53,574 bases of DNA from a bacterium (GCA_013360215.1 JABWCP010000005.1:186001-239574); one strand, 5' to 3'; positions 5,268 through 12,787 are shown, numbered from the stretch's first letter. The notes: generated from the sequence alone by a model not told the origin. Numbers and translations are program-made.

Positions 5268-6395
5268 TTAACGAGTATCTTGTGAAACCGTTTGATAGTT
5301 TTTTTTGAGTAGGTTTTGGAAATGATACACGCCGTTTTCACACTCTACCGAAAATCGACCTCGGTCATACACGTCCGATAGAAGTCCTTTGTGTACATGT
5401 TCGCAAATATCACAATCTTCTTTTTGTACTTTGTCACTATAGGCGATATCATCTTCCGCCACCGCTCGTTTGGCCTCCGTCGAAAGATCCGCGTAAAAAT
5501 AGTCAAAGATCACATGACACCGTTCGTGACCGTCGGGTATGATACGATTGACCTGCAAACGTCCCGGTAAAATATTGAGCATAAAATTAGGCCAAACAAA
5601 ATAATACAACGCCTCGCCTTCATTGGTCTTATATACGTTGCCCTCGTCGGAAAAAGGACTGTACTGTATCGAATAATATTCATACGTCTCCGTCACATAC
5701 TGCGCATAGTCAAGCATGGACGTAAGTTCCGGATGAACGAATGGCAAGTGATAACCTTCCAGATAATTATCGGCATACACTTTCCAATTGGCGCGCACGG
5801 GATACACAATGCGCTTATAAAACGTGAGGTTCGAAAACAAGCGCCGCTCCAAGTCCGCATCATACGGCTTGCGCGATATGCGCTCTTGTGCACCTTGAAA
5901 TAACTTGGTGAGCGGCATAGGATTTTTCTCAAGCGAAACGAAGACCAATCCACCCCACACATCCACCTGTAAAGGCACTAAGCCGTAATCCTTTTTATCA
6001 AAAAGATCTACGTAGTTCCACCGCGGGATGCCGCGCAACGATCCGTCGGTTTTATATGTCCATCCGTGATATTGGCACTGCAGGACTTTATTGCACGTAC
6101 CGCGCGCATCGGTGACCAGGGGTCCTCCGCGATGGCGGCATACATTATAAAAGCCGCGAAGATTGTTTTCCGTGTCACGCAAAACCACTACCGGATTATC
6201 GGCCACCGTCGCCGTGAGGTATTGGCCCGCTTCCGCCAACTGCGAAACATGACCGACGTACTGCCAGGATTTAGAAAAAATATATGCACGATCCACAGCG
6301 TGAAAACGCGCATCCGTGTACCACGACGACGGTATGGTCGAGGCACGTTCTAAAGGTTCAATTAAGAATTGAGAGGCATCAAAATCAGGTAACAT
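5268..6395 (-). CDS. Rieske non-heme iron oxygenase alpha subunit (choline monooxygenase-like group)
   Basis: Rieske ligands CRH...CQYHGW; catalytic NWK...DNYLEGYHLPFVH and distal ED..ICE. ATG at 6395. Confidence 0.88.
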   Translation of the reverse strand: MLPDFDASQFLIEPLERASTIPSSWYTDARFHAVDRAYIFSKSWQYVGHVSQLAEAGQYLTATVADNPVVVLRDTENNLRGFYNVCRHRGGPLVTDARGTCNKVLQCQYHGWTYKTDGSLRGIPRWNYVDLFDKKDYGLVPLQVDVWGGLVFVSLEKNPMPLTKLFQGAQERISRKPYDADLERRLFSNLTFYKRIVYPVRANWKVYADNYLEGYHLPFVHPELTSMLDYAQYVTETYEYYSIQYSPFSDEGNVYKTNEGEALYYFVWPNFMLNILPGRLQVNRIIPDGHERCHVIFDYFYADLSTEAKRAVAEDDIAYSDKVQKEDCDICEHVHKGLLSDVYDRGRFSVECENGVYHFQNLLKKNYQTVSQDTR

Positions 6396-6586
6396 AGGAA
6401 ATATCTTTTTTGTGCATGGCAATTATAGAAATGCGGGAATAAAGTACACGGAATCGCGGTTAGTCACAACAGATTTTCTTCGCTTCGCTGCATAAATTTT
6501 ACCCTCTAGAAGTTAAGAAACAAATCAACTCTTGTGAAGCGGCTTGTTTTCCTTTATAATTGTCGAAATCTTTTTTCGGAGGTTAC

Positions 6587-6955
6587 ATGAAACGCAGATG
6601 GTTTATTTCTGTCATGACCGTACTGATCTTCGGATCGTGGTACGGATTTGTAAGCTGCCAGACCAACCGGCCTAAAAACATCAAAGTGCTTGATGAACTG
6701 AAGGACGCCACCATCGAAGAGATCAAAGAATCCATGCGCTTATACACCCTTTCTATGGGCGTCGAATGCGACTATTGCCACAATAAGGATGATTATGCGA
6801 GCGATGAAAAAAAGGAAAAAAATATTTCGCGCGATATGATGCGCATGGTCCGGGCGCTCAACGAAAGTACATTTAAAAACGCCAAAGAAAGTGTTACTTG
6901 TTATACATGCCACCGCGGCGCCGTAAAGTTAAAAAACATTCCGCCCGGACTGTAA
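6587..6955 (+). CDS. Small diheme c-type cytochrome, probable lipoprotein (photosynthetic-RC-cytochrome-like domain)
   Basis: GGAGG RBS, signal peptide ending FVSC, CDYCH and CYTCHRG motifs, and the M...MGV.C..CH / R.MM.MV..LN pattern. Confidence 0.8.
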   Translation: MKRRWFISVMTVLIFGSWYGFVSCQTNRPKNIKVLDELKDATIEEIKESMRLYTLSMGVECDYCHNKDDYASDEKKEKNISRDMMRMVRALNESTFKNAKESVTCYTCHRGAVKLKNIPPGL

Positions 6956-7016
6956 ATTCCAGATCCGATCATTTGTCAAAAAGTTGTAAAATCGTTTTCC
7001 GCTTTTCCGATTTCGC

Positions 7017-7044
7017 TTGACTTTCCACCCGTTTTACCTAATTT
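7017..7044 (+). promoter_or_regulatory. Putative sigma70 promoter for the RAPP ORF
   Basis: TTGACT at 7017-7022, 16 nt spacer, TAATTT at 7039-7044. Confidence 0.4.
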
Positions 7045-7086
7045 GAATTATAGGTACAGTACTTAAAGTAAAGACTTAACCATCGC

Positions 7087-7437
7087 ATGATGCGGACTTT
7101 TTTACATACGGCATTTTCCAAAGCGTTGATATTAACGTATATCTTCATCGGATATCTCGCTATTACGACGACGGATACGCCGCAGTGTGTGATCTACGCC
7201 CAACATGTGATGCAGACCGACCCGACGACTGTCCCTTCATCGGTCACCATCAAGGTCTTTGCGGCACGCCACATACAGCCTGAAAAACAATCACGCTCAA
7301 TAGCTTACGTCAGTCTTTTTGATTTCGTTATACCGCCGGCATGCGCAACGCTCTTACGTGTTGTTAAATCAACGCATTTAACGACGTACAACGGATTTTC
7401 CATAGAGCAGCCCGCCAGAGCCCCGCCCATCGCATAA
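7087..7437 (+). CDS. Membrane/secretion-targeted small protein with C-terminal RAPP motif (candidate ribosome-arrest leader)
   Basis: N-terminal hydrophobic segment ALILTYIFIGYLAI; ends ...QPARAPPIA*. Confidence 0.65.
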   Translation: MMRTFLHTAFSKALILTYIFIGYLAITTTDTPQCVIYAQHVMQTDPTTVPSSVTIKVFAARHIQPEKQSRSIAYVSLFDFVIPPACATLLRVVKSTHLTTYNGFSIEQPARAPPIA

Positions 7438-7456
7438 TTATTTCCTAAAACCAGCA

Positions 7457-7574
7457 GTACACAAAACAATCGCTTTTAAAGTGTGTGCATTCGTGTGTTC
7501 GCGATAAGCGACTACACCAATCGACATATTTTAATCGGAGGATATTACCTCATCCGAAAAAAGCCTTTGTGTAC
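7457..7574 (+). promoter_or_regulatory. Candidate structured cis-regulatory RNA leader
   Basis: GTACACAAA (7457-7465) is the exact reverse complement of TTTGTGTAC (7566-7574) and encloses the hairpins GTGTTCGC-GATAA-GCGACTACAC and TCGGAGG-ATATTA-CCTCATCCGA. Confidence 0.4.
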
Positions 7575-7612
7575 CGTATTTCATCATCTTTAAAAACACA
7601 TAAGGAAAGATT

Positions 7613-7723
7613 ATGTCAAACGCAGCTTCAACCCCCAAAACAGGTTATATCGCATTCGGTATTTATGTAGGCATCGTTGTTCTCGGTGTCGTGTCTTTTT
7701 GGATATTTGCTTTGACACGCTGA
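7613..7723 (+). CDS. Unannotated 36-aa single-TM small protein (MSNAASTPKTGYIAFGIYVGIVVLGVVSFWIFALTR)
   Basis: TAAGGA RBS before ATG 7613, one hydrophobic helix, TGA at 7721-7723. Below the ORF-track cutoff. Confidence 0.6.
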   Translation: MSNAASTPKTGYIAFGIYVGIVVLGVVSFWIFALTR

Positions 7724-7819
7724 CAAACTCAATGATAATCACATATTGCACGCGATCGTACGCCAATATCTTTTTGACGTACCAATAATCGTGTGCTCAT
7801 TAAGCCACGAAAGTTCTAT

Positions 7820-7945
7820 ATGAAAACGCATACACAACTTACATCGGAAACCAAACCCAAAAGGGATTATTTATTTATTTCACTTATGGCTTTGATCGGC
7901 CTAGGTATTCTCTCATTTATTTTACGTTTAGCCGGATTGATTTGA
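7820..7945 (+). CDS. Unannotated 41-aa single-TM small protein (MKTHTQLTSETKPKRDYLFISLMALIGLGILSFILRLAGLI)
   Basis: ATG 7820, basic KPKR followed by one hydrophobic helix, TGA at 7943-7945. RBS is weak. Confidence 0.55.
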   Translation: MKTHTQLTSETKPKRDYLFISLMALIGLGILSFILRLAGLI

Positions 7946-7991
7946 TCAACCGCTACATAATACATGAATCATTTTATCAGGAGAAGAGTGT

Positions 7992-9332
7992 ATGTCTGAG
8001 GAATCCAAAGTGAACCGTCTTTTTTCAAGGCCGGTGATGATCGGAATATTTTCCGTTTTACTTTTTATTTCGGCGCTTTTGTTTGTTCGCGATCCGCTTT
8101 TCCAACAATCGTCAAGTGGACAATGGTTGTTTTTGAGCATTCCGGTCGAATTTATTTTGTTTGGCCTTACACTGCTGTGTGTTGCTCTGTTTCACCATTA
8201 TGTTTTACAAGTGGCGTTGACAGGGCTTGCCGTCATTTTGACTTACAAATTAAGCTTTACTTCATTTGATGCCGTCGCGCACATTCATCACGAATGGGCG
8301 ATTGTCGTTAATTTGCTCGGTTTGCTGGTAGGGTTCGCCATTCTTGCCAAACATTTTGAAGAATCGCATATACCGGAAATCCTTCCGAAGCACCTTCCCA
8401 ATGGCATGGCCGGACCGCTGGTATTGCTATGCATCACATTTGTATTATCCTCTTTTCTGGATAATATCGCTGCGGCAATGATCGGCGGCACGATCGCACT
8501 AACGGTTTTTCGCGGTAAAGTGCACATCGGTTTTCTTGCCGCTATCGTCGCTGCAAGCAATGCCGGCGGCGCAGGAAGTGTTTTGGGCGACACGACCACG
8601 ACGATGATGTGGATTGACGGCGTCAGCCCGTGGGATGTACTTCATGCATACTATGGCAGTATCGGTGCATTTGCCTTTTTTGCCATCGTTGCTTCAATAC
8701 AACAGAACAAATTGCAAACCATCATCCGCGCTGAAGGTTCCGAAAACCATTCGATCGACTGGGGTAAAATCTTAGTCGTAGCTCTGATATTAGTCGGTGC
8801 AATTGCCACCAATATACTTCTTGATTTTCCTGCACTCGGCGTTTGGGTTGCAATTTTTATTGGCGCCTTTATCCGCAAAACCGCATGGCATGAAATACCC
8901 GTCGCGCTCAAAGGCAGCATCTTCCTGGTTTCTTTGGTGCTCAGCGCTTCCATGATGCCTGTTGATCAACTGCCGCCGGCCGCCTGGTTTACCACATTTA
9001 TACTTGGATTCGTTTCCTCCGTATTCGACAACATCCCTTTGACCAAACTGGCCTTGGATCAAGGCGGATATGATTGGGGGGTTTTGGCTTATGCCGTCGG
9101 ATATGGCGGATCCATGATTTGGTTTGGTTCTTCGGCGGGTGTGGCCATTTCAGGTATTTTCCCCAAAGCCAAATCCGTCGTGTTTTGGCTCAAAGACGGG
9201 TGGCATGTCGCTGTCGGTTATGTGATTGGCTTTTTTATTATGCTGGCTTTGTGGGGCTGGGAACCGCATGAAAACCACAAAACCGAAAAAAGCGAATCGC
9301 TTAAACAACCATCAACCGAACAAACGCATTAG
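7992..9332 (+). CDS. Ion transporter (IT) superfamily protein, NhaD/CitMHS-like
   Basis: FVLSSFLDNIAA, ASNAGGAGSVLGDTTTTMMW, GFVSSVFDNIPL and GGSMIWFGSSAGVA motifs; AGGAG RBS; many TM helices. Confidence 0.85.
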   Translation: MSEESKVNRLFSRPVMIGIFSVLLFISALLFVRDPLFQQSSSGQWLFLSIPVEFILFGLTLLCVALFHHYVLQVALTGLAVILTYKLSFTSFDAVAHIHHEWAIVVNLLGLLVGFAILAKHFEESHIPEILPKHLPNGMAGPLVLLCITFVLSSFLDNIAAAMIGGTIALTVFRGKVHIGFLAAIVAASNAGGAGSVLGDTTTTMMWIDGVSPWDVLHAYYGSIGAFAFFAIVASIQQNKLQTIIRAEGSENHSIDWGKILVVALILVGAIATNILLDFPALGVWVAIFIGAFIRKTAWHEIPVALKGSIFLVSLVLSASMMPVDQLPPAAWFTTFILGFVSSVFDNIPLTKLALDQGGYDWGVLAYAVGYGGSMIWFGSSAGVAISGIFPKAKSVVFWLKDGWHVAVGYVIGFFIMLALWGWEPHENHKTEKSESLKQPSTEQTH

Positions 9333-9351
9333 ATTCCTCTCCTCCTGATTC

Positions 9352-9398
9352 AGCGAATAGTCGGTGTTGCACTCAGCGCACCGGCTATTCAGCTTTTT
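9352..9398 (+). terminator. Rho-independent terminator
   Basis: GAATAGTCGGTG...CACCGGCTATTC stem followed by AGCTTTTT. Confidence 0.7.
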
Positions 9399-9499
9399 GT
9401 AACACCCCCGTTACATGTAATTTAGCTTGAAAACGCCGCCTTACCTGTTTAATTTGCATGTGCATTTCCGGTTCTACACTTCACCGAGGAGTTTTATCC

Positions 9500-10882
9500 A
9501 TGAAATCTCGTTTTGATTTTTTCATCATCGTTTTGTGCGTTTGCGGCGTAGTGACTTTGTCCGCTCAATCTGCTGCCGATTTAGTCCAACAGGCCAATGA
9601 AAAATTTTCATCCGCCGGTTCGGAGAAAGAATACAAAGAAGCCGCCGGAATTTATGAGAAAGCGGCCGCCGCCGATTCGACCCTGGCTATCGCATGGGCA
9701 GGTCTTGCCAAATCGCACGCCATGATCGGCAATATCGCTTCGCTGAACTACAAAGATGATCTGAAAATCAAACACTATAAAGAATCCGCTAAATATGCCT
9801 CCAAAGCCGGAAAACTGGATAAAGAAAACTCCGATGTGCAGACGGCGCTCGCTATGGTGTACCGCCAACTCAGCCAACGGGATAACTTGATGCGCGTTGC
9901 TCAGAAAGCGGTCGCGCTTGATCCCAAAAACGCCGAAGCTTATGACCTATGGGCTGATGCTTACTCCGAAGATTATTTTCCAAAAAACGCTAATATTGAT
10001 TCTTCCATTCTCATTCGTAAAAAAGCCGTTGAAGCCAATCCGAACTTCGCCAAAGGATATCGCGGCCTCGGCGATGACTACGCATCCAAAGGGGATTTGG
10101 AACAAGCCGAGTCGTACTTTACCAAAGCTATCGCGATCAATCCGCAACACGCCGGTTCACATGATCGTTTAGGAAGGCTGTATTATCTACAGGGCGAATT
10201 TGAAAAAGCCAAAACCGAATTTAACACGGCTATCAAACTCGATCCGCGCTCGACGTTTGCCTATACCCATCTTGCGGACGTATTGGCCGACGAAGGAAAT
10301 TTCAAAGAAGCGTTCCTCAAATTTACTTATGCTGTTGATCTCAATCCCAATGCCGCTTACGCACACGCCAGCCTTTCATGGATGTATCTGACGGCTAAAG
10401 ACAAAAGTTTTCGCAATGTCGGGAAAGCCATCGAATACGGCGCTATGGCCGCAGAGTTAACCAATAACACCAACCCTGAGTTTTTAGCTGTGGCTGCAGA
10501 AGCCTATTACGAAGCCAGTTTTAACAAATCGGAACTCCGTGACTCCGCAACCAATCGTCTCAAAATGGCGTTGAGCATAGAACCCGACAACTTTGAATAT
10601 CAGGAAACCTTGGGACGGATGAATGCGAAGGAAAAAAGCCGTGAATATGTTTACGCATGGAAGCGCGGCGAGCGGCTTTTAAGACATAACCGCATTAATG
10701 ACGCCATCAATGAATTTATTACGTCCGAAGAAAAGAATGACAAATTCGTACCCAATCTGATCAGCTATGCAAAAGCGCTGAAGAAAAAAGGCGATGAAGC
10801 TACCATGAAAGTATATTTAGAAAAAGCACGCAAGGCGGATAAGGCCGGAAAATACACGGCTTTGATTTCGTCTGTGCAATAA
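9500..10882 (+). CDS. Secreted TPR protein
   Basis: GAGGAG RBS and ATG 9500, signal peptide (...TLSAQ), multiple TPRs (KAIAINPQHA, TAIKLDP). Confidence 0.85.
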   Translation: MKSRFDFFIIVLCVCGVVTLSAQSAADLVQQANEKFSSAGSEKEYKEAAGIYEKAAAADSTLAIAWAGLAKSHAMIGNIASLNYKDDLKIKHYKESAKYASKAGKLDKENSDVQTALAMVYRQLSQRDNLMRVAQKAVALDPKNAEAYDLWADAYSEDYFPKNANIDSSILIRKKAVEANPNFAKGYRGLGDDYASKGDLEQAESYFTKAIAINPQHAGSHDRLGRLYYLQGEFEKAKTEFNTAIKLDPRSTFAYTHLADVLADEGNFKEAFLKFTYAVDLNPNAAYAHASLSWMYLTAKDKSFRNVGKAIEYGAMAAELTNNTNPEFLAVAAEAYYEASFNKSELRDSATNRLKMALSIEPDNFEYQETLGRMNAKEKSREYVYAWKRGERLLRHNRINDAINEFITSEEKNDKFVPNLISYAKALKKKGDEATMKVYLEKARKADKAGKYTALISSVQ

Positions 10883-10930: not shown

Positions 10931-12787
10931 ATGCGCGCTTGCATGAATTTGTTTTTTTTCGCCATGATGATTACCGCTTCGCTTTGGGCGCAACTCAAAG
11001 TAGCTGTGGTTCCGTTTTACAACGGTACCATGCTTTCCAAAAACGAATGGCTTGGTCATGGATTTTGCGAATCGCTCAACACCGATCTGAGCGAAGAAAA
11101 ATCTGTCCTGATCATGGATCGCCCCGATGTGCTCGCTGAAATCAAAATGAACGGTTTTAAACTTCTGGACATGCTGGACGAACAGAAAGCCTTGACGGTT
11201 GCCCGTTCGCTGGAAGTGGATAAAATCATTATCGGTTCTTTTGACATTCCGGGTGGTGCAACGCCTTCGATCAAAGTGCAGGCGCGTTTCATAGACGTCA
11301 AAAGCGGTAAAGCGGATACTAAAAACGCTTACACCGCCGAAGGCAAGTATTCCATGACTAATATTTACGCGATGTACGGGCAGATCGCGGCGCGTGCGCT
11401 TGTTAGTTTCGGAAAACGTGCGGCGGATGAAACCGCCATCACCGGTAAAGGTTCGATCAATGTGGACGCTTACGAGCCATACATCAAAGGTATTTTGCAA
11501 TATGACGAAAGCAGCACGGTCGAAGATTATTTAGCGTCGATTGCTCTATTACAACAAGCTATCAAAACCGACAGCAGCTTTGCCATGGCATACGCCGGCA
11601 TGGCAAAAGCCTATGCCAAAATCGGCCGTATACAGGATATTAATTTTAAAGCTGATGAAAAAACCGAGAGTTATAAAAAGGCCTTAGATGCCGGTCTCAA
11701 AGCCGCCAAGCTTGATAAAAATCTTGCTGTAGCGTGGACGGCTCTCGCTCTCACGTATCGCGAACTGAAAGAACGCGATCAGTTGATCGAAGCGGCCCGC
11801 AAAGCCGTCGCACTCAAGCCCAGTCAATATGATGCGTACGATATGCTGGCCGACGCATTCTCTGCCAATTTTTTCCCCGCTCATAAAAATAACGACTCGT
11901 CCGTTTTTTATCGCAAAAAAAGCGTAGAGTACAATAATAAATTTGCCTCCGGATACCGCGGACTCGGGCGCGATTATTTCGACAAAGGGGACTACAAAAA
12001 CGCCGAAGAGGCATACCAACGCGCCATCACACTCAATCCTAAACATGCGGGTTCCCGTGATCTGCTCGGTCAGGTATACACCATACAAGGCCAATACGAA
12101 GAAGCTAAACAGCAATTTCGCGAAGCCATAAAACTCGATGCCAAATCCGCTTTTGCTCATACGCATCTTGCCGACGTACTGGCGATGGAAAAAAATTATG
12201 CCGAAGCCGTCACTTCCTATCAGTCTGCAATAGCTATCAACGCCAAATTCGCTTTAGCGTACAACGGCTTGGCATGGATTTATATCGCGTCTAAAGATAA
12301 AACCTTACGTAATCCGGCCAAAGCCGTAGAAAACGCGCAAGCCGCCGTTCAGCATTCTGACAGCAAAAACGCTTCTTATCTTTACACGTTGTCCGAAGCG
12401 CATTTTTCCGCCGGCGCTCATGATGCCGCACTTGAGACTATCGGCAAAGCTCTCGCTCTGGATCCGCATAATAACGACTACGCCGAAGCCCAAAGTCGCA
12501 TTACCAAAAAAGAAAAAAACAGTGATTATGTTTTTACACTGCGACGGGGTATGATGCTGATGAAACAAGGTCGACAGGACGAAGGTGTCGTCGAATTTGA
12601 AGAAGCGAACAAGCTCAGCCCCCAAAACGTCTACATACTTTTTACGTTAGCTAAATACTACGACAGCAAAAAAGAATTCAAAAAAGCGTTCGAATATTAT
12701 TATCGCGCGCGCAGCTGCGACTGGGATAAAAAATATTCGAAATCCATTCAGGAACGAATGAATGAGCTGGCACCCTACGGAAATTAA
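10931..12787 (+). CDS. Secreted TPR protein with N-terminal TolB-N/CsgG-like domain; paralog of the upstream gene
   Basis: Signal peptide, KVAVVPFYN...WLG.G..ESL...IIGSF...ARFIDVKSG, then TPRs matching 9500-10882. Confidence 0.82.
   Translation: MRACMNLFFFAMMITASLWAQLKVAVVPFYNGTMLSKNEWLGHGFCESLNTDLSEEKSVLIMDRPDVLAEIKMNGFKLLDMLDEQKALTVARSLEVDKIIIGSFDIPGGATPSIKVQARFIDVKSGKADTKNAYTAEGKYSMTNIYAMYGQIAARALVSFGKRAADETAITGKGSINVDAYEPYIKGILQYDESSTVEDYLASIALLQQAIKTDSSFAMAYAGMAKAYAKIGRIQDINFKADEKTESYKKALDAGLKAAKLDKNLAVAWTALALTYRELKERDQLIEAARKAVALKPSQYDAYDMLADAFSANFFPAHKNNDSSVFYRKKSVEYNNKFASGYRGLGRDYFDKGDYKNAEEAYQRAITLNPKHAGSRDLLGQVYTIQGQYEEAKQQFREAIKLDAKSAFAHTHLADVLAMEKNYAEAVTSYQSAIAINAKFALAYNGLAWIYIASKDKTLRNPAKAVENAQAAVQHSDSKNASYLYTLSEAHFSAGAHDAALETIGKALALDPHNNDYAEAQSRITKKEKNSDYVFTLRRGMMLMKQGRQDEGVVEFEEANKLSPQNVYILFTLAKYYDSKKEFKKAFEYYYRARSCDWDKKYSKSIQERMNELAPYGN

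Follow-up and report, generated by a model that had tools for sequence, protein, structure and literature searches.

The window analysed here is a 53,574-nucleotide (nt) stretch of bacterial DNA (GCA_013360215.1 JABWCP010000005.1:186001-239574), within which we studied a block at positions 7017-9398 that carries a putative arrest-peptide leader, two very small membrane-protein genes and a transporter gene, all on the plus strand. The leader is a 116-residue open reading frame (ORF; 7087-7437), defined by the ORF listing, alignments and an AlphaFold2 (AF2) model, that ends in ...PARAPPIA before its stop and has its RAPP codons (AGA GCC CCG CCC) at 7417-7428. Behind it, a structured spacer of 175 nt (7438-7612) leads to s36 (7613-7723), which encodes a 36-residue protein with a single transmembrane (TM) segment and is supported as a gene by homologues, by its ratio of nonsynonymous to synonymous differences (pN/pS) and by a Shine-Dalgarno (SD) sequence. 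There follow s41 (7820-7945), identified from the ORF listing and an alignment, which encodes a 41-residue single-TM protein from its ATG or, as an alternative in the ORF listing, a 50-residue form from a GTG at 7793; a 446-residue transporter of the IT superfamily (CitMHS in Pfam; 7992-9332) with its own AGGAG SD; and, at 9352-9399, an intrinsic-terminator-like hairpin (9352-9394; -25.3 kcal/mol, z -4.84) followed by UUUUU. An initial annotation of the window had placed the RAPPIA-ending ORF, the spacer, both small TM ORFs, the transporter and the terminator exactly where we find them.

Chance would not account for the features of the block. Relatives share the leader, the two small ORFs and their arrangement, and purifying selection acts on these genes. 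Together, these data indicate that the element is real, conserved and most likely another RAPP arrest leader, with only an indirect link to the transporter.

The leader family and its C-terminal motif

A profile of the leader detected 18 copies, in 15 of the 18 genomes of the order and 15 of the 20 genomes of the GTDB phylum, a small candidate phylum. The leader-bearing genomes are metagenome-assembled genomes (MAGs), and the organism is uncultured and comes from activated sludge. Only 17 clusters matched the profile among 1.84 billion protein representatives. A profile search of genome contigs returned 7 loci, none extending the family past the MAGs already searched, and metagenome contigs yielded two leader loci, one belonging to a near-identical strain and the other matching the copy labelled L025 exactly.

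R[AG]PP followed by 2-8 residues forms the C-terminal end in 17 of 17 database clusters, and in 17 of the 18 genomic copies the motif lies 2-20 residues before the stop, at about residues 111-114. In the alignment, Y18, Y23, R111, P113 and P114 are invariant, S11, F20, H62 and K67 are nearly so, and Cys34, mostly conserved, is the sole conserved cysteine of the family. Residues 1-68 are conserved and are followed by a variable, unalignable linker (approximately 70-110). For close pairs, pN/pS was 0.20-0.28 over the whole leader, with a pN of 0.05-0.07 versus a pS of 0.57-0.70 within residues 1-70; relative to a strain of approximately 98% identity represented by the RNA contig X17, all five leader differences are synonymous.

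Using an alignment of 29 sequences, AF2 predicted a helix at residues 2-28 with predicted local distance difference test (pLDDT) scores of 87-95, and disorder in the remainder (pLDDT ~50). The hydrophobic core spans residues 13-27, and its flanks carry mean charges of +2.0 on the N-terminal and -1.4 on the C-terminal side, the N-terminal flank being the more positive in 28 of the 29 sequences. This charge bias and the AF2 helix point to a signal or anchor with an N-in, C-out orientation. The leader had no Pfam match at E <= 0.1 besides a chance BpsA_C hit, and for the leader, s36 and s41 alike, with all alignment members searched, neither Pfam nor NCBIfam gave anything meaningful even at E <= 10. 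Language-model neighbours of the leader (SecM_small at a similarity of 0.93, CzcI and DUF6769) were kept as leads only; Pfam gave no match to these families.

The motif is avoided elsewhere in the proteome. Among the 2474 ORFs of at least 200 residues in this genome, RAPP was observed 0 times versus 6.9 expected and RGPP once versus 6.1 expected (combined, 1 versus 13), with the comparison motifs AAPP (9 versus 9.6) and PPAR (7 versus 6.9) near expectation. The leader has a C-terminal motif, small size with an N-terminal TM segment, proteome-wide avoidance of the motif and a predicted occluded ribosome-binding site (RBS) downstream. Judged from its sequence, it carries every hallmark of a RAPP-type arrest peptide, as the initial annotation had proposed, and it probably arrests the ribosome at RAPP.

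The same genome holds three more small TM ORFs that end in R[AG]PP plus 2-3 residues, at G000:C28:127406-127735 (minus strand), C28:123944-124300 (minus strand; L065) and C49:55084-55473 (plus strand; L066). Of these, the ORF ending in RGPPVIS precedes a TonB-dependent receptor gene, the one ending in RAPPLFV a gene for a CobW-type GTPase, and the one ending in RAPPIC a 37-residue TM ORF with a GGAGG SD, a 94-residue ORF and a gene for a sulfatase-family membrane protein. With three further R[AG]PP leaders present, the organism therefore seems to use such leaders repeatedly.

How the leaders themselves are translated may differ among loci. An SD core precedes only 1 of the 18 leaders, and none lies within 20 nt before the leader ATG of the window (7087). 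At L028-30, L024 and L025, the promoter scan placed a -35/-10 pair with 9-11 of 12 matches so close to the leader that only 5-6 nt separate its end from the ATG, and at L033/34 and L036 a -10-like hexamer, recognized by eye, stands at this distance too; the leaders at these loci may be translated from leaderless mRNAs. This picture is unlike that of the window, where RNA contigs reach back to 7038 and 6950.

Micro-membrane proteins, transporter and gene order

A single-TM ORF of approximately 35-46 residues lies behind the leader in all 18 copies, and the first such ORF has an SD core in each of them (18/18). SD sites are in general use in this genome (32%, versus 6% at control positions). In 11 copies, including L035, the ORF directly behind the leader is of the s36 type (35-39 residues). 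Both small genes of the window are under purifying selection, with pN/pS values of 0.16-0.35 for s36 and 0.22-0.45 for s41; five of the seven s41 differences in the X17 strain are synonymous, and an alignment of 11 s41 sequences shows a conserved C-terminus, ...R(L/M)(A/S)G(L/I)(I/F). On this comparative evidence both tiny ORFs are real genes, and the corresponding proposal of the initial annotation holds across relatives, at an overall pN/pS of 0.16-0.45. A language-model neighbour of s36, a 38-residue 'SGM_5486-like transporter-associated' family (0.88), was treated as a lead only; Pfam gave no match to it, and a literature search for SGM_5486 found nothing. A reading of s36 as a type I toxin was considered as well, but drew no evidence in either direction.

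The transporter passes the Pfam model CitMHS (PF03600) with 38.6 bits versus a cutoff of 31.9 over residues 75-369, in agreement with its proposed membership of the IT superfamily. It falls below the cutoffs of both NhaD models (TIGR00775, 62.4 versus 577.1; NF038006, 45.5 versus 80), and its description as Na+/H+ antiporter-like is therefore not established. Homologues at 60-71% identity belong to a large family and are named citrate transporter, SLC13 permease or NhaD/arsenite permease-like; neither sequence nor profile searches found a relative in the PDB.

The transporter gene lies behind the leader in 10 of the 18 copies, and in these 10 loci, which span two families, the order of leader, small ORF(s) and transporter is kept, and an s41-type ORF immediately precedes the transporter gene in 10 of 10. 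The conserved block of the initial annotation thus recurs as a gene order in relatives but not as a fixed unit, the remaining eight leader copies having no transporter behind them. A transporter query found none in genomes G002, G006, G007 and G009, and in G010 it matched only an 83-residue fragment at a contig end. The genes that follow leader units without a transporter encode an AraC-type regulator, a methyltransferase and a KamA-family radical SAM protein. Because the small TM ORF is present in 18 of 18 copies and the transporter in 10 of 18, we take the invariant module to be the leader plus a micro-membrane protein; the transporter is an add-on to this module in about half of the cases. 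The leader-linked transporters formed no single well-supported clade in a tree.

Several other loci bear on these families. A second transporter paralogue of the same genome, 68% identical (L016; G000:C11:38340-42638), lies directly behind a hexapeptide-repeat (LbH) gene, without leader or small ORFs. It belongs to a second paralogue class in the phylum (also L002/L003/L014/L015) that sits behind a hexapeptide-repeat gene with no leader and is tandemly duplicated in one genus. At L010/L026/L037 (G003:C28, ~91500-92400), two leader units stand back to back on opposite strands, one leading into s41 and a transporter and the other into an s36-type ORF only, followed by a convergent TPR gene. In the distant leader subfamily, L039 (G007:C24, 2142-3338) has a 39-residue TM ORF and, 86 nt later, a KamA-family radical SAM gene (TIGR00238, 133.7 bits with a cutoff of 199; EpmB model, 103.8 versus 369), an arrangement present in one genome only. 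At L036 (G004:C297, 2185-2716), two s41-type ORFs flank a 67-residue fragment resembling the transporter N-terminus, which looks like a local duplication remnant.

The block is flanked on its 5' side by a gene for a Rieske/ring-hydroxylating oxygenase alpha subunit (5268-6422, minus strand) and, just upstream, by a small c-type cytochrome of the non-photosynthetic PufC-like kind (6560-6955, plus strand). Downstream lies a TPR protein gene (9458-10882, plus strand), followed by an ORF (10931-12787, plus strand) that resembles it and, by that similarity, would encode a second TPR protein.

Predicted pairing of the leader 3' end with the s36 ribosome-binding site

The 3' end of the leader is complementary to the translation start of s36. 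The anti-SD arm (7432-7446) consists of the last codon of the leader, its UAA stop and UUAUUUCCU, and in both the minimum free energy (MFE) fold and the pairing probabilities its partner is the arm that holds the SD (AGGAAAG) and AUG of s36 (7603-7616). In the MFE structure, 7432-7439 (GCA UAA UU) pairs with 7609-7616 (GAUUAUGU) and 7441-7446 (UUUCCU) with 7603-7608 (AGGAAA), so that the last codon, the stop and the next 9 nt are engaged and the spacer folds nested inside this helix. The fold of 7395-7640 has an MFE of -52.4 kcal/mol (z -4.42; 0 of 200 shuffles as stable), and the segment from R-6 to sORF+20 gave a z of -5.0. The pairing probability was 0.73 in each of three contexts, starting from RAPP, including the whole leader, or extending 150 nt further downstream. 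No Rfam covariance model matched at E <= 1 across 6900-9500, spacer included.

Comparable pairing recurs at other loci. We cut each locus into equal tiles and ranked the main partner tile of the small-ORF SD, defining the leader-3' zone as the R codon to stop+20. In the window, the anti-SD zone ranks first of 12 tiles. The leader-3' zone is the top SD partner in 7 of 10 s36-bearing loci, the remaining three placing it at ranks 2, 3 and 6. It also comes first in all three additional loci, among them the distant leader subfamily L038/L039, where GAUUCCUC just after the stop is a complementary match to the GAGGAAUC SD; the zone thus ranks top in 10 of the 13 loci tested. The fold z was -2 or lower in 5 of the 10 s36-bearing loci. 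The anti-SD lies inside the RGPP/RAPP codons in L033 and L034, before the stop in L032 and L035, and after the stop in the window, L036 and L039, and this varied placement argues for selection on function rather than for one inherited helix. The design is not universal, because at the C49 leader of the same genome the SD of the 37-residue ORF is hidden by a local hairpin and not by the leader end.

In the X17 strain, none of the 40 listed differences falls within 7303-7741, a segment of 439 of the 2366 nt compared (the contig has 44 differences in total, 4 of them unlisted). This difference-free segment comprises the leader 3' end, the spacer and s36, and its flanks vary in that strain. The initial annotation had described a hairpin region before each small ORF. 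This is borne out before s36 by the fold given above; before s41, the MFE and centroid folds agree on a local hairpin (7748-7797), but 7715-8010 taken together is not significantly structured (z -1.43).

Transcription was followed in contigs from 4 activated-sludge or bioreactor metatranscriptome runs, which report the presence and bridging of RNA but not its ends or levels. Contig X17 spans 6950-9315 unbroken and X19 covers 7440-8215, so that leader, spacer, s36, s41 and transporter are bridged; X6 and X11 continue past the terminator hairpin to 9811 and 9900, respectively. An untranslated region upstream of the leader (6956-7086) holds the presumed transcript start and the hexamer TTGACT (7017-7022). 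The promoter proposed at 7017 was not flagged by a consensus scan, which found 3 sites versus 5.1 expected from shuffles; yet RNA contigs begin close by, at 6950 (X17) and 7038 (X6), and 6300-6950 is covered by none of the 4 runs.

We consider it fairly likely that the 116-residue ORF is a RAPP-type arrest leader whose stalled ribosome unmasks the s36 SD. Here, the signal or TM helix would bring the nascent chain to the membrane in the N-in, C-out orientation that the charge bias and AF2 helix suggest. On reaching R111-A-P-P114 the ribosome would stall, its P site occupied by CCG (7423-7425) and its A site by CCC (7426-7428), a codon assignment that we infer by analogy with the CruR toeprint reported in PMC12992588. 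At the stall, approximately 75 residues, comprising the signal or TM helix and the conserved exported segment, would be outside the tunnel, and the ribosome would occupy or adjoin the anti-SD arm. A stalled ribosome covers mRNA to roughly +12-15 nt; a footprint of this size would reach the helix arm, which starts at +9, and would therefore free the SD and AUG of s36. The stall would thus switch s36 translation on, and release and departure of the ribosome would let the helix re-form and switch it off. Release would most likely be triggered when the conserved part of the N-terminus that is exported is pulled or bound; the activity of Sec/YidC, the ion-motive force, a ligand and the small protein itself are candidates for this input.

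The initial annotation had suggested that the leader may control the transporter; the predicted switch acts on the SD of s36 and not on that of the transporter. In this genome, s41 and the CitMHS-type transporter would be co-transcribed passengers, as the bridging RNA contigs suggest, and might follow s36 only indirectly, via polarity or mRNA protection, if at all.

In a more specific version of this circuit, which we regard as rather unlikely, the leader would go beyond a generic export monitor and serve as a homeostat for micro-proteins or membrane energetics, the releasing pull reporting the amount of micro-protein or the ion gradient. Leader residues 10-68, an unusually conserved stretch of TM helix and juxtamembrane segment, would then be engaged in the membrane by the ~35-residue product, alone or with s41 and the transporter; alternatively, an adequate ion-motive force would be the condition for export of this stretch. 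If so, an arrest peptide would have a single-pass micro-protein as its direct, ancestral target, and about half of the lineage would have drawn an ion transporter into the circuit.

Several observations weigh against unmasking of the s36 SD by a stalled leader ribosome. One leader copy, L031, carries RASP instead of R[AG]PP. The five copies that lack an s36-type ORF (L025, L028-30 and L037) show a pairing probability of ~0 and insignificant folds (z -0.4 to -0.9), and the leader must therefore act differently there, or not at all. In a control based on duplex energy only, the zone contains the best anti-SD duplex at just 5 of 15 loci; at 7 more it is outscored by 8-20 windows located elsewhere. 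Folding the whole leader lowers the pairing probability to 0.00-0.02 in L026 and L031, and the anti-SD of the window lies only partly within the ribosome footprint, from +9 of the P site onward. Three further points concern transcription. In sample S3, the dominant long contig, X11, ends at 7305, inside the leader ORF and approximately 118 nt upstream of the predicted P site, with an Illumina-adapter tail. Contig X6 has a depth of 41 over 7038-7349 versus 139 over 7320-9811. Transcription starting internally and bypassing the leader, processing of the RNA, or its protection by queued ribosomes could lie behind these two observations. Finally, a strong sigma-70-like site that overlaps the end of s36 (7712-7739; TTGACA-16-GATAAT, 11 of 12 consensus matches) could drive s41 and the transporter independently.

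This last site is central to the alternative that survives best, namely that s41 and the transporter form a separate unit with its own promoter at 7712-7739, the leader controlling s36 only and the adjacency being a lineage-specific accident. The eight leader copies without a transporter, the AGGAG SD of the transporter gene and the lack of one well-supported clade of leader-linked transporters are all consistent with it. We nevertheless hold it to be doubtful: the site is unconserved in the other 9 transporter-bearing loci (9 of 12 matches or none), the scan that found it gave no excess over shuffles, the order of leader, small ORF(s) and transporter is kept in 10 loci of two families, and RNA contigs bridge s36, s41 and the transporter.

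Quite improbable, in our estimate, is that the leader stalls but acts on the RNA, blocking Rho loading or 5'-to-3' decay, so that a stalled ribosome or queue raises the whole downstream transcript in a tnaC-like or ermC-like manner and the anti-SD pairing is incidental. A long spacer (82-243 nt across loci), the depth step of X6, the adapter-tagged end of X11 and the retention of the leader in five copies that lack both an s36-type ORF and SD pairing would fit such a mechanism. Against this, a scan of the spacer found no terminator-like hairpin with a U run, contig depths cannot rank the parts of a transcript, and an anti-SD of this design, differing in position and sequence from locus to locus, is found in 10 of 13. 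That the ORF codes for a small exported or membrane protein of an ordinary kind within a plain operon, with R[AG]PP serving the mature protein as a functional or sorting motif, would account for selection on the first ~70 residues stronger than a bare signal peptide needs and for a highly conserved TM helix with its invariant or nearly invariant S11, Y18, F20 and Y23, but is very unlikely in view of the avoidance of RAPP/RGPP in long ORFs, the fixed position of the motif near the stop between varying flanks, the predicted disorder after residue 28, the complementarity of the ORF 3' end to the SD of the next gene and the arrest of translation by such motifs in three bacterial systems, according to PMC12992588.

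Comparison with known arrest peptides and small membrane proteins

Fujiwara et al. (2025; PMC12992588) described small secretory and TM proteins that contain RAPP/RGPP and are encoded ahead of diverse genes, and the kind of switch is therefore already known. There, the arrests are reported as robust and EF-P-resistant, the CruR stall places the two Pro codons in the P and A sites, seven RAPP/RGPP peptides were validated in Streptomyces lividans, and the motif is excluded proteome-wide, which is matched by its depletion in this genome. The source data list 'cation:proton antiporter' downstream of 75 RAPP versus 81 AAPP upstream ORFs (3.6-fold) and, with 6 word matches, 'sodium:proton antiporter NhaD' among the downstream genes; the main text makes no mention of transporters or antiporters, and the survey, as described there, discarded downstream genes annotated 'unknown'. 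The initial annotation had called the present arrangement undescribed. A search of the literature on arrest peptides with antiporters, small membrane proteins or NhaD indeed found no description of it, but RAPP leaders upstream of diverse genes, antiporters included, do appear in these data.

Like the leaders covered in that study, the present one is shorter than 300 residues, begins with a signal or TM segment, carries R[AG]PP near the stop, precedes a co-directional gene and comes from a proteome depleted in the motif. Unlike them, it belongs to a sequence family of which six motif strings are absent from the searchable supplements of PMC12992588; its next gene is an unannotatable ~35-residue TM ORF; and an explicit anti-SD helix is predicted and recurs across relatives.

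In CutF-cutO of Rhodobacter capsulatus, according to the CutF preprint, stalling melts a stem-loop that hides the RBS of the next gene. The leader resembles CutF and CruR (Bordetella pertussis) in being exported or TM-anchored with a C-terminal, proline-rich, RAPP-type stall sequence, and its conserved exported segment, a feature it has in common with both, suggests sensing of a ligand or partner. It differs from both in having no DUF2946 or other Pfam match, one mostly conserved Cys34 and a nearly invariant His62 rather than a CxxxC or a His cluster, and no copper genes downstream.

In the class of SecM, MifM, VemP and ApdA/ApdP, a stalled ribosome exposes the downstream SD. The leader shares with SecM-secA, MifM-yidC2, VemP-secDF2 and ApdA/ApdP a layout in which a variable linker joins the export signal at the N-terminus to the arrest motif at the C-terminus. 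Its exported segment is conserved, unlike that of the secDF-linked SLIV_07330, for which PMC12992588 gives no conserved motif. The leader also differs from these Sec/YidC monitors in its downstream genes, which are not Sec/YidC components: s36 and s41 have no family match, and the transporter is of the CitMHS type.

KdpF, AcrZ and MgtS are small single-TM partners of transporters. Their likeness to s41 lies in its size of ~40 residues, its one TM helix and its position directly upstream of the transporter in 10 of 10 loci; unlike them, s36 and s41 have no sequence-family match, and s36-type ORFs occur also without a transporter.

The locus offers a compact, testable case, with a switch helix that can be read from the sequence, for the questions with which Fujiwara et al. 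(2025) close, namely whether RAPP/RGPP proteins regulate their downstream genes, by what RNA mechanism, and where the releasing force comes from. The predicted regulated product is a ~35-residue membrane protein missed by annotation pipelines, which would tie bacterial micro-membrane proteins to a defined post-transcriptional control. By extension, if the recorded 'downstream gene' is often separated from its RAPP leader by such a tiny ORF, surveys would assign targets one gene too far. Set beside the known systems, what is new here is the sequence family, a micro-membrane protein as the predicted direct target, and a predicted SD-unmasking helix that is both legible and recurrent.

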